A stretch of DNA of 64,000 bases from Balanoglossus misakiensis (lineage: Eukaryota > Animalia > Hemichordata). A program made the position numbers and the translations under genes. The stretch spans positions 7,797,519 to 7,861,518 of the forward strand of contig CM082578.2 in assembly GCA_040954595.2 (NCBI GenBank). Direction: 5' to 3'. This document shows positions 10,005-53,969 of this stretch, piece after piece (the stretch's first letter is position 1; each line of letters starts with the position of its first letter). The notes under the pieces are model-generated. The model saw only the letters and a program-made list of their open reading frames with translations, ran no database searches and was not told the DNA's origin.

Positions 10005-13000
10005 ATGTCTCAGATACCAGTTTCAAATCCCATAAAGGCAAATATGTTATTTGTGGCAACACTATTGTGCATACTGATGAACTCTAATGCAAACATCTAT
10101 GAAGCTGCAAATTTCACTGACACCAAGTCTAATGGATTCAACCACATGACTGTTCATAGGGACACTGGTGATGTGTATATTGGTGGAGTGAACCAGCTGT
10201 ATAGGTTAAATGGAGAGTTGGAACTTAAAAACAATGTATCAACAAGACCAAACTCAGAACAGGAACAGAAAGACACCCACAATAAAATACTGGCAATCAA
10301 CTATGACAGTAACCTTGTAACCTGTGACAGTTACAGAGGTACATGTCAACTACGTGATCTGCAGGATTTGTCTGTGACAAAAAATGGAGCAGGTGTGTTT
10401 GTCACATCAGTGTCACCTGATGAATCCACTGTGGGTTTTGTCGCACCAAATCCTGATGATCCGTTTCTGTATGTTGGCACAACAAGTGTAACTACAGGTG
10501 ATGGTAGAGAACCAGGTGATCCATTTGTGAGTGGCAGACAGCTGGATGATACCCGTAATGAGTTATTTGATGTTCTTGATGAAGGTAGTGATGATGAAAC
10601 ATCAGTCAAGGTTCATCCAGGCCATGCAGACTCTTTTCCTGTCAGGTATGTGACTGGATTTAGCCATGGTCGGTACAGCTACTTTCTGACTTCACAGTTG
10701 ACTTCAACATCAATAACATCTCCTTATATTTCCAAGCTTGTACGTGTCTGTCAAACAGCAAGAGATTACAGGTACAAATCCTATACTGAAGTGACATTGA
10801 AGTGCAAGGATGAACAATACAACCTTGCTCAAGCAGCTTATCTGACCAGACCTGCAGGAGACCTCATTCAGTCATTGGCATTGGGTGACAGTGAAAAAGT
10901 GTTATTTGTTGCATTTGCCAAGGGAGTTGATGATCCTCCAGTACCAACAACTGAGTCTGCAATATGCATGTATAAAATGAGTGTGATTGAAGAGGCATTT
11001 AAAGATGCTGCTGCAGGGTGTCTGACATCAAGGAAACCTGGAGGACCAGCTTCCTGGATAAATGGAGCTTTATGTCCCCGGTCAAATATTGACGTAAGTA
11101 CAGACTATTTGGATGTTTACGTTTAATTTTGCAACAATCATTTATGGGGTTTGATTCTTTTTATTCTCATTCTCATCTCTTTTTATTTCTCATGATATAA
11201 TACTTCTAAACATACCAAAATAAACTTGAAGTGTCGAGGATGCATGGTACTCCCAAGAAATGTAGCCAGGGTGACTCAAATGAGTCCAATCTCTGTCAAT
11301 TTCTTCATGCATTTTTGTCATGAGCAATAATTAAGACATATGCCAGAATTGATCTCATTCTAACTTTGCTTTGTTCATCTGTAGATTGTTACAGGGCATG
11401 ATAAGTTTCTGTCCACAGCGCCCTTATGTGACCATTTGATGCCATGTTGGTGGTCCACTGTATGTTTCACAGTCAACTGTGGGATTTTTATGGTCAACTG
11501 TTAATTTTTGGTAGTAAACTGGCCATTTTGAATTCCCCTCTTCGCTTTCATTTACCTACCCCTACAGTTGGATGGAGGTCGACAGACATTGAGTGTGAAA
11601 GTTGATACTAGTAACACAAAGTTGAACTTCAAGGGTATTGCTAAAATAAAAGCTATATCTGACATTAAAAAAAAACAATTTAGCCTATTAGTTTTATAAT
11701 CCAAACTAACTTTGTACAACAGTATTTATTTTGTTCAAGAATTTTGTCTTCATGGCGCAAAACCTGAAAATGATAAGCTAATATGGAAATTACACGCGAG
11801 CATGCAGTACCAAATGGATTGGCGTCGAGTGGGGGAGACCGACATGTTCTGAGTTACATATCCATCATGTCACCACTGTACTGGTATTTTTATTTGCATA
11901 CATGTTATTTAAAAAATTGCTCACGGTGTATAAATTGGCTCCCCAGAAAACCAAACTATATATAATGTAAAATGCTGATCGATCCTGAGGATTTACTGAG
12001 TGAAATTATCATTCTGATACTAACTCTGGACCATTGCCCTCTAACAATTTTTTTGTTTGAAAATAATTTGAGTCAAATTCATTAAACAAGAAATTCTTGT
12101 GGGTCACTGAAATGTGCGCTGCGTGCATCGAAGTGAAGTGGGGGGAAGTCTCCTGCAGGAAATTTGAATCTGATGGTTGGAGGTGCATTCTGGTGACATT
12201 TTCATAATAATTTTAGCAAAAAAAGGAGAGCGAAAAATGCTATTTTTTCTTTATTTATGTCGAAAAGTTCAACACCAAACCTTCCTACATGTACTTTCAT
12301 AAATTTGAAAAAAAAGATATATTGACAAGTAGTTTGAAACAGAAGTAAATTTTTTTCCACAGGGAAGCACCTACTGGGAATGTACACAGCAGATTTCCAG
12401 CATGTTGTACATAACTTAGGTCACTGTTGTTACTATATTCAGAAACAAAAGATCACATACACCAATAATATACATGTACCGGTATGGCCATTGTATGTTG
12501 TGAAGCCACATTTTCTTATATGATTTATGATTTTAGATCTAGGATAATGCACTCATGCACTTATTCAGACACGTAAGTTAATGTGTGCATGCATGGTTAT
12601 ACTGGGTATGTACACATCTAAGAATATGGAATTCAATAGATAATGGACCATGTGATACAAACTAAGACCTTCTTCCTAAAATAACAATGGTGTGCCTTTA
12701 ACGAAACCCCTGCCATTAATCCACCAGCAATATGTTATTGATTTGTTGATTTTCAGTTTCCTCCAAATCAAGAATGTTTTGCAGGCTCTCACTACTCATA
12801 TGCGAACGGAGTGGTTGATCAGGATGGGTATTCAGTAGAAGTCTATCCAAGTACTCTTGTCACATCAATAGCTGTCACCACTGTTGAACAACATACTGTG
12901 GGCTTCCTGGGTACAGACAGAGACTGGATTCTTAAGGTAATCATGGTGTGAGTGCTTCTGTTTTAATTGTTGATTGTAAATACTGGAAGAAAATCAAGGA

Positions 13001-52300: not shown

Positions 52301-53969
52301 CGTGAGACTATGGACCAAGCTGTTAATGTTTCCACAGAACGTGCTCGACATAAGCCCTTCTCAGGATGTTGAACTGGTACTTAAATGCGTTGAAGATGTG
52401 TTTGTTGACATCTGCTCTGTCACAGAGGTACGGTTCTATAAGTGTGATTTGCCAATATATGAGCTGGAACAAAGCACTGGGTGTTTCCGTCAATTAATTG
52501 TGACAAACTATAGGACAACTTTTCTCACTGTACATTCATTTCCCTTACATGTAAACCGTTGTTTTATAGAGTGCCAAGAACAAATGTACATGCATTTCTC
52601 TTTGAAGGAAACAACTTCGAGGGACTTGTATGAAGAGGAAGTCTCAACTTTCAAAGCAAAACTGCAAACGTACATGAAAGATGTAAAATCCGAAAAATCA
52701 GTCAGTGACGAAGATCTCAAGCAATATCTGGATGAAACCTTTCAGGTGAGGGGTGGGAATTCTTGACATTGCTAATTTAACGTGTAAAATGCCATCCCTA
52801 AAACACGAATTTGGTAATGCTTCCTGTATTGAAATGTAAACTGCCATGTCGATATTTGCGTCTCAACATAAGTCGATAGACTTGCAGCGGCAAGTTAGAA
52901 TTCATAAGGAAAATATTCAGGAGCATTACAGTTTCAAATGAAGGGTAGATGTCAATGCTTTCATGTATCAGCAAGGAGGATTTGCATGATTGGCAAATCA
53001 CGTGGATAGTGTATATTTATACACTTAATAAGATGGGATATGTTCTATGAATGCACCTGTGCCCATCGGTAGTACTTTGAACATGACTATGCACTTTCCA
53101 ATAATGGCTTGTTAACTCTCGCGGTTGCCATTTTAGGATCTGGATGGCTCCTTTGACAAAATGGTCGCCTTAGACGAGCTGTTTAACACTTTGGCCGGAT
53201 ACAAAGATGAGGTACATGTATAGATGATTATGTTTAATTTTTAGATTGAGTTTACAACATAAGTTTCGCTGTTTAAGAAATCGAGACTGAGTCATTTTGA
53301 ACTGAAAGGAAACTTCACTATTATGAATTAAGTCATCTTTGCGTGTTAAAGTGTTCTTAGCCAATATCATTCCTTATATTTACAGGCCAAGTCCCATATC
53401 GACATATTTGAATTTCAGTGTGACTGAGTGTACTTGTCTCATTTGATATGATTATTTGATGAGGTTTCCTGACCAAAATTCACGATTAAATTTGATAATT
53501 ACCACCGTGCTTCATCCTACAGATCATAACAGCATTGCACAGCGATGAATATTGCAAGAAAGAACACCACGCTGAAAGATTTGAGGGGCTGATAGCTTCC
53601 TTGGTGGAACATCCCTACGAGCAGATACCCGCTGCCAGGTATGAAGCGCTTCATCCAAGACCACAGGCTACTTATGAAGGCCTCCGGGGGATGCCACAGA
53701 CCCCTCCACACTACCAAGACCTGTATCCAGAACCCAAGTCCCAGTATACAGAGCTGCAGCGCCAGCAGCAACACCTGGACACGGGAGCTACACGTCCATC
53801 AACACAGACACAGTATGAAACGCTGCAGTTGCAACCGCAGACGGAATACACTCGGCTTCATCATGGCGGACAGCAGGATGGCCAATCGACAGAAATCGCC
53901 GCACACTATCAACCACTCTCCAAAGACCCCAACCCACCACAATACGAAAGTGTCCGGTCTGATCAATAA
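34387..53969 (+). CDS. Plexin-2: tandem paralogue with complete ectodomain and TM, degenerate GAP lacking the RBD, and a tyrosine-motif (ITAM-like) tail, ~1810 aa
   Basis: 31 exons: 34387-35478 (alternative ATG at 34375), 36162-36341, 36956-37090, 37695-37795, 38207-38339, 38656-38815, 38961-39057, 39348-39468, 39590-39730, 43736-43837, 44146-44239, 44565-44755, 45278-45432, 45687-45804, 46081-46217, 46937-47119, 47442-47535, 47736-47987, 48262-48438, 49598-49829 (TM), 50038-50132, 50269-50387, 50524-50589, 50858-50932, 51242-51308, 51516-~51671 (donor uncertain), 51774-51946, 52295-52427, 52608-52745, 53137-53211, 53523-53969. Exons 2-19 have the same lengths and phases as plexin-1. No internal stop or frameshift was found in any exon. 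Confidence 0.88.
35595..35709. mobile_element. MITE-like element with 19-bp terminal inverted repeats (2 mismatches), TA at both ends
   Basis: TAGACTGAAAGATTCAGTC ... GACTGAATCTTATAGTCTA around a GC-rich core in an otherwise AT-rich intron of plexin-2; no equivalent seen in the matching plexin-1 intron. Confidence 0.65.
39171..39226. repeat. (TTAG)n microsatellite, intronic
   Basis: agttagttagttag run with one interruption. Confidence 0.9.
39764..40012. repeat. (CATA)n microsatellite (~60 units), resuming at 43575-43605 after the satellite
   Basis: Directly visible. Confidence 0.98.
40013..43575. repeat. Satellite array, 87-88-bp monomer, ~40 copies, inside plexin-2 intron 9
   Basis: Consensus GAAGTTTCGCAAAGTCGAAAAATTGTCATTTTTGGATGATTTTCATGAGCTATAACCCATGATTTTTGTCAAAAA(A)TGACGAAATTTT repeated head-to-tail with few substitutions. 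Confidence 0.98.
43882..43999. repeat. (GAT)n microsatellite, ~39 units, intronic
   Basis: Pure tgatgatga run; source of the poly-Ser ORF on the minus strand. Confidence 0.98.
48800..48991. mobile_element. Degenerate MITE-like/foldback element
   Basis: Imperfect ~31-bp inverted repeats aactacatgacttgtgcgtgcgatctgtgcc ... ggcacagatttcgcgtggaggtcatgaagtt in a CpG-rich part of plexin-2 intron 19. Confidence 0.45.

Follow-up and report, generated by a model that had tools for sequence, protein, structure and literature searches.

The 64,000-nucleotide window analysed here (Balanoglossus misakiensis, assembly GCA_040954595.2, contig CM082578.2, positions 7,797,519 to 7,861,518 of the forward strand), a stretch of AT-rich animal DNA without a single N, carries two tandem plexin-B-like genes on the + strand, whose nearest relatives are found in enteropneust hemichordates. 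The initial annotation had read them as a candidate paired-receptor system, with near-identical ectodomains joined to different cytoplasmic regions. This finding is real and, as judged from sequence, larger than first noted: the second gene represents a hemichordate class of plexins with a putative pseudo-GTPase-activating protein (pseudo-GAP) domain and a tail with the spacing of ITAMs (the tyrosine-based activation motifs of immunoreceptors), and the ectodomain of this class and that of a full-GAP plexin have been homogenised in at least two lineages. The architecture of the genes, the loss of catalytic and dimer residues, the confinement of gene conversion to the ectodomain and its recurrence in Glandiceps are demonstrated below.

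Both models were built by hand from self-comparison, tblastn matches and splice sites, and are predictions from genomic sequence; their introns are GT-AG throughout and each gene has a single open frame. Gene 1 (10005-29647, +) has 36 coding exons and encodes 2013 residues in the order signal peptide, Sema, PSI/IPT, transmembrane (TM) segment, GAP, RBD (a domain that binds Rho GTPases) and GAP, followed by an acidic tyrosine tail of about 100 residues. Gene 2 (34375-53969, +), with 31 coding exons and about 1829 residues, reads as an RBD-less pseudo-GAP plexin with an ITAM-type tail; its model involves choices of start codon, of a donor after 51671 (a best guess) and between acceptors at 49999 and 50038, and its signal peptide was judged by eye. 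Exons 1-19 match one to one between the genes, exons 2-19 being of equal length, and both models can be aligned end to end with Pfam-annotated plexins, over Sema, PSI, IPT, a single TM segment and the RasGAP-like domain. Among Pfam families, PF08337 was matched on the window exons and PF01403 reached E 7e-4, below the cut-off, with part of the exon as query. For the Sema exon, the best matches are plexin-B-like proteins, one from Ptychodera flava at 56% and one from Glandiceps talaboti at 44%.

The mature Sema exons (10098-11093 in gene 1 and 34483-35478 in gene 2, both +) align without gaps and differ at 14 of 332 residues, exactly as the initial annotation had counted, and at 34 of 996 bases (96.6% identity), the changed codons comprising 18 silent and 14 replacement differences; in the 100 bases on either side, only 33 and 44 positions match. 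The likeness had been placed in this exon, the 5' conversion tract, and it does lie there, but it is not restricted to it, as the whole ectodomain is alike: identity is 94% over the complete Sema domain and 77-80% over PSI/IPT, against 49% in the GAP halves. The strong divergence described for the signal peptides, TM segments and cytoplasmic regions is borne out by the N-termini, by the TM/juxtamembrane exon (22065-22302 in gene 1, +), where the likeness falls to 30%, and by the cytoplasmic exons (20-64%). Silent divergence also varies from exon to exon. At four-fold degenerate sites, the genes differ at 10 of 155 positions in exon 1, 2 of 18 in exon 17 and 2 of 32 in exon 18. In exon 6 the count is 6 of 11, in exon 19 it is 17 of 26, and across the GAP exons 33 of 54; the heterogeneity seen along the ectodomain was reached by none of 5000 permutations. 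Clear homology is found in two of 25 intron pairs, intron 16 (94% over 321 bases) and intron 17 (87% over 85), which lie in a second conversion tract spanning exons 16-18 (19775-20955 in gene 1, +; counterpart at 46935-47990 in gene 2, +), while introns 1-3 beat ten shuffles only marginally, through matches no longer than some 30 bases, and the other introns do not. This exon-by-exon mosaic therefore points to repeated conversion of the ectodomain.

The trees, whose rows we picked from similarity-search matches, tell the same story. The two genes are joined at 100/100 in the Sema tree (25 rows) and at 99 in a quick IPT tree (15 rows), whereas their pairing in the GAP tree is rejected by the approximately unbiased (AU) test, at p=0.0069 with 18 rows (a set that omits the long-branch P0043) and p=0.028 with 13 rows, values to be taken with caution because long branches remain in these trees. 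There, gene 1 is placed beside P0012 of Ptychodera (89/91 with 13 rows), to which its GAP is 84% identical, as opposed to 49% to gene 2. Conflict between the domain-wise phylogenies, the silent-site mosaic and the two homogenised introns thus bear out the conversion that had been proposed, and indicate that the likeness of the ectodomains stems from conversion, which is confined to them, and not from recent duplication. Adjacent, highly similar outside and homogenised by conversion, the genes have the layout expected of paired receptors.

Inside the cell, the first half of the gene 1 GAP (exons 21-26, 22715-24882, +) has an intact juxtamembrane dimer motif and an RR pair (24048-24052/24189); exons 27-31 (25355-27319, +), which encode the RBD together with a linker and the beginning of helix 11, are without counterpart in gene 2; and the second half (exons 32-35, 27560-28881, +) retains the second arginine. 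The RBD is recognised by PF20170 on exon 25355-25510 (E 3e-14), and no remnant of it was found in gene 2 by tblastn up to E 10. In gene 2, the TM exon and first GAP half (49598-51308, +) have lost the juxtamembrane dimer motif and carry a lysine at the arginine-finger position (codon 50928), and the second half comprises four open exons (51774-53211, +), with PF08337 matched on 51774-51944 (E 7e-11). Between the halves lies the RBD-deletion junction (51516-51773, +), where the exon start is conserved and a strong donor is absent. A GAP without RBD, a deletion at the same junction and a YxxL tail are also found in Glandiceps P0010 (XP_077981100.1) and Ptychodera P0064 (XP_070557607.1). Exon 21 of gene 2 offers two in-frame acceptors, at 49999 and 50038 (scores 9.6 and 5.0), and with its shorter form gene 2 is closer to P0010 and P0064 in juxtamembrane length.

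We numbered residues on PlexinC1 (PMC3787391) and its chain 4m8n_A, with an offset of 548 set by Pro611, Arg1001, Asn1005 and Asn1009. The equivalents of Arg711 and Arg1001 are R/R in gene 1, K/R in gene 2, Q/R in P0010 and T/T in P0064. Gene 2, P0010 and P0064 have thus all replaced the Arg711 finger (by K, Q and T), and all three are without the Phe579/Leu582 (juxtamembrane) and Glu932/Leu939 (helix-11) dimer motifs, while gene 1 retains both arginines, the RBD and the dimer-interface motifs. Because the finger is replaced and both activating-dimer motifs are lost, the three domains are best read as pseudo-GAPs and are likely inactive, in agreement with the degenerate, RBD-less GAP first described for gene 2. 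Placing the finger at the second arginine of the RR pair, as in RasGAP alignments, would leave gene 2 intact; we rejected this, since counting on the PlexinC1 chain puts Arg711 first. For gene 1, the GAP motifs and RBD reported initially are present (Arg711, Arg1001, PF20170), but some Rap-contact residues are altered: the equivalents of Pro611, Asn1005 and Asn1009 are A/I/C in gene 1 and D/K/F in gene 2, and the gene 1 orthologues retain Asn1005 only. The isoleucine at the Asn1005 equivalent (28013-28042) is found in gene 1, with P0012, P0244 and P0014 keeping Asn, and Pro611 and Asn1009 are lost across the hemichordate group.

The last exon of gene 2 (53523-53969, +) encodes the end of the GAP and a tail in which eight of the ten tyrosines lie in YxxL/I sequences. 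These form three non-overlapping YxxL-x7-YxxL pairs (53640-53684, 53712-53756 and 53814-53858), joined by a near-ITAM at 53907-53954, so that the tail shows the ITAM pattern YxxL/I-x6-8-YxxL/I in three copies; neither its YxxL/I count nor its pair count was matched by any of 100,000 composition shuffles, which upholds the multi-ITAM-type tail of the initial annotation. Among 73 GAP-bearing proteins examined, seven have tails of more than 60 residues and four have at least two YxxL/I after the GAP, namely gene 2, P0010 and P0064 in two isoforms; the tail tyrosines are kept in relatives from Glandiceps and Ptychodera. The 7-residue gap between YxxL units is common to gene 2, P0064, P0003, P0042 and P0099, the last three being the GAP-less plexins introduced below. 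In tail shuffles, the similarity of gene 2 to P0003 and to P0010 was reached in 0 and 6 of 1000 cases, respectively, repeat structure not being controlled for, and that between genes 1 and 2 was not significant (198 of 1000). Gene 1 has a different tail in its last exon (29261-29647, +), which also holds the end of the GAP: it has Y-E-hydrophobic sites and, within 29576-29640, both a PxxPxK motif (29576-29593) and an F-x-Y-G at the very end, features conserved with P0012 and P0244. We take the PxxPxK to be of the SH3-ligand type.

Orthologues of gene 1 are present in Ptychodera (P0012, 73% cytoplasmic identity) and Glandiceps (P0244, with the same type of tail). The RBD-less plexins likely share an origin, and by their sequences they constitute an old acorn-worm class with a predicted pseudo-GAP, no RBD and an ITAM-spaced tail. 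GAP-less plexins with the same tail spacing straight after the membrane also occur in Glandiceps (P0003) and Saccoglossus (P0042, P0099); all three are database models, and P0099 appears chimeric. Glandiceps P0010 matches the full-GAP plexin P0014 at 75-98% identity over residues 660-1140 but at 33-48% in the intracellular region. It is 85% identical to the Sema fragment P0102 and, in the ectodomain, about 50% identical to the gene 1 orthologue P0244, and a grouping of the P0010 and P0014 GAP domains is disfavoured (AU p=0.018). The three sequences P0010, P0014 and P0102 each lie on a contig of 35.9 Mb. By sequence comparison, this is a second homogenised pairing, with a different full-GAP plexin (P0014). 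In Saccoglossus, full-GAP and GAP-less proteins fall into a single clade by their Sema domains (100/100), at 69-75% identity. Mosaic ectodomains are also seen in the plexin-B and Met-like kinases of the sea star Patiria (P0018, P0020, P0021, P0015), where P0018 and P0021 are 90% identical over PSI/IPT and 72% over Sema, which suggests that they reflect the same exchange process.

We lean towards the reading that the gene 2 ectodomain has been overwritten from gene 1 time and again, so that the two products likely bind the same ligand but signal differently. The ligand would cluster the gene 1 product and switch on its GAP towards a Rap/Ras-family GTPase, with an anti-adhesive output; clustering of the gene 2 product would let a Src-family kinase phosphorylate its tail, which would then recruit Syk or another tandem-SH2 protein for an activating output. 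In mixed dimers, the gene 2 product would dampen the gene 1 product, because both activating four-helix-bundle helices are absent from it, and selection would maintain alike outsides and distinct insides, as it does in the paired receptors of vertebrates. In amphioxus, SYK has been shown to bind a different ITAM receptor and to phosphorylate it, and invertebrate SYK-ITAM coupling is supported in amphioxus and oyster (PMC13344425). By analogy, an immune or phagocyte setting is plausible, although we would put it at somewhat less than an even chance. One supplement of a Saccoglossus immune paper contains no plexin, and among the Schizocardium single-cell markers, in the rows available (PMC13554239), plexin rows extend to cluster 12 and immune clusters begin at 15, with identifiers that are not linkable to these genes. 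More tentatively still, acorn worms may have made a plexin paired-receptor system in which the members of a receptor cluster swap and homogenise their ligand-binding ectodomains across three interiors (full GAP, dead GAP with ITAM array, and ITAM-only) and turn one fast-evolving ligand, be it a semaphorin, a marker of self or a mimic made by microbes, into either repelling or ignoring, or activating or engulfing.

Several points weigh against this interpretation. Expression of both genes is a prediction from sequence, and conversion can be explained by proximity alone. The clade of RBD-less plexins has weak support (62/81 with 18 rows, 28/0 with 13 rows), and phase-0 introns around the lost block would make repeated loss of the RBD easier. 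Pairing is not fixed across lineages, as judged from sequence: for P0064, the matches listed include no close partner in the ectodomain (Sema 43% or less), many of the Ptychodera models being split, and its tail holds a single ITAM-spaced pair. The gene 2 tail (53523-53966) matches no Pfam family, ITAM included, at E up to 1, and is without acidic residues upstream of its ITAMs, which precede the motifs in vertebrates. The gene 1 tail has neither an ITAM nor the pattern of an immunoreceptor tyrosine-based inhibition motif (ITIM), so this is not a classic ITIM/ITAM pair, though the GAP may functionally replace the inhibitory ITIM member. Even this output may be non-canonical in activity or substrate, because the equivalents of Pro611, Asn1005 and Asn1009 in gene 1 are Ala, Ile and Cys; mutating these sites reduces RapGAP activity (PMC3787391), and the loss of Rap-contact residues in hemichordates hints at a changed GTPase target. 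The paired-receptor layout proposed at the outset stands as far as linkage and alike ectodomains are concerned, and the second case in Glandiceps strengthens the idea; the genes resemble paired receptors in layout and may do so in function. Finally, exon 51516 is followed by a weak donor. The 64 other donors have a leave-one-out minimum of 3.1 bits and none is found here within their range that stays in frame; the best in-frame candidate, at 51672, reaches 2.7 bits, and its intron would measure 102 bases where the shortest of the others has 120, and the better-scoring one at 51647 (3.8 bits) is out of frame.

This junction speaks for the improbable alternative that gene 2 is a recently damaged allele or pseudogene, in which an out-of-frame splice or the stop at 51747 would yield a truncated decoy or a degraded transcript and the tail would be lost. 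The GT at 51623, where P0010 and P0064 predict the donor, gives a 107-base exon, one base under the 36 codons of P0010, and scores -1.1; the N-terminus of gene 2, too, departs from the family pattern. Yet all 12 TM and cytoplasmic exons are in frame with intact splice dinucleotides in spite of nearly saturated silent sites, and two routes keep the frame, through the donor at 51672 or by an exon skip from 51308 to 51774. A frame disruption between 51516 and 51774 had been named among the findings that would refute the proposal, and the outcome is divided: in-frame routes are available, but a strong donor is not. Use of 51672, exon skipping or a one-base assembly error, which could equally account for the junction, would each preserve the tail, and a real frameshift would lose it. 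An other-frame stretch at 51664-51740, which by eye resembled exon 31 of gene 1, was rejected, as it has no tblastn match and would need introns of 41-58 bases. That the two genes are merely two haplotypes or a collapsed repeat is extremely improbable: the 3.4% difference in the Sema exon is attainable between alleles of marine invertebrates, but 23 of 25 intron pairs are without extended similarity, the number of cytoplasmic exons differs and both types have counterparts elsewhere, which disposes of the artefact considered initially.

The class may also be real and its pairing unselected, the ectodomain likeness being due to neutral ectopic conversion between neighbours that are possibly expressed in separate tissues. 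We hold this to be rather unlikely, although the partner varies by lineage (of gene 1 type here, of P0014 type in Glandiceps), Ptychodera offers none among the matches listed, the sea-star plexin-B/Met-LP ectodomains (such as P0018-P0021, with 90% over PSI/IPT) are mosaic as well, and conversion requires prior similarity and would thus stay within exons already alike. In both species, however, high similarity spans most ectodomain exons and ends at or just before the TM exon, with most introns unlike, a limit that is easier to understand if conversion is tolerated or favoured outside and purged inside. Unlikely, too, is a tail that acts in trafficking by tandem YxxL or in generic SH2 docking (endocytosis, Src/Nck/Crk scaffolding) instead of through Syk, in which case gene 2 would be a ligand-clearing or dominant-negative developmental co-receptor. 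The YxxL motif doubles as an adaptor-binding sorting signal, plexins are chiefly morphogenesis receptors, the tail has no Pfam ITAM match, and those of P0003 and P0010 are visibly repeat-expanded; the 7-residue spacing shared by five of these proteins, though, is that of tandem SH2 domains and is unneeded for sorting. Shared recognition with different signalling remains the interpretation we favour.

Compared with canonical plexins A and B (PMC3787391), the order Sema, PSI, IPT, TM and split GAP is the same and gene 1 is like them in Arg711, Arg1001, RBD and dimer motifs, but its Switch-II contacts are changed, gene 2 is without RBD, finger and interface, and the 100-120-residue tyrosine tails of both genes are not found in the other GAP plexins examined. 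With the vertebrate paired receptors Siglec-5/14 and Siglec-11/16 (PMC13358205), the pair shares linkage, converted near-identical outsides and differing inner signalling; it differs in being built on a plexin scaffold and not on Ig or C-type lectin domains, in a counterpart with a GAP and not ITIMs, and in carrying its ITAM-type motifs in cis, neither TM segment having the charged residue of adaptor-coupled receptors. The Met-LP kinases of echinoderms and lophotrochozoans (PMC6374515) likewise pair a complete plexin ectodomain with an exchanged interior that signals through tyrosines, and in our analysis their ectodomains cluster by species and not by tail; there, however, an own kinase domain replaces the GAP, whereas in gene 2 a remnant of the GAP survives and a kinase would be recruited by the tail. 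The same source reports an Acanthaster Met-LP adjoining a plexin-B gene, an echinoderm plexin expansion and sponge plexins with truncated interiors, and Saccoglossus is not mentioned in its main text. Among the full-text literature matches listed, subscription journals being largely outside their scope, no ITAM-bearing or RBD-less hemichordate plexin is described and no plexin example of such a pair appears, as had been supposed. Plexin-A1 provides a tie between a semaphorin receptor and ITAM signalling, which it reaches through TREM2 and DAP12; in that case a separate adaptor carries the ITAM, whereas here the plexin itself bears the motifs.

Elsewhere in the window, a next gene at 57009-61001 (+) is visible as open reading frame exons that presumably encode CUB and EGF repeats, together with a TM segment and PPxY motifs in the tail, and an exon at 3282-3665 looks like that for the last helix of an SLC6-type transporter. 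Intronic microsatellites occur around 26930-27090, 39750-40030 and 43870-44000, with TACA/CA arrays in both genes and a trinucleotide array in intron 10 of gene 2, and the intergenic spacer holds a short direct duplication (32300-32420) that shows up as one peptide in two frames.

The pattern described here is easily overlooked because public models, several of them split, are labelled just 'plexin-like'. The interior of plexins is regarded as that of a GAP receptor and as almost invariant, and this lineage-wide class would represent a second output wired onto the same receptor; it would also offer a natural experiment on the roles of the RBD and the GAP fold when catalysis is lacking. Should the pair act in phagocytes, it would provide a testable invertebrate deuterostome model for the origin of activating and dampening paired receptors, and if acorn worms did build such a system on plexins, paired immune receptors would have arisen independently in an invertebrate lineage, on a scaffold used in axon guidance.

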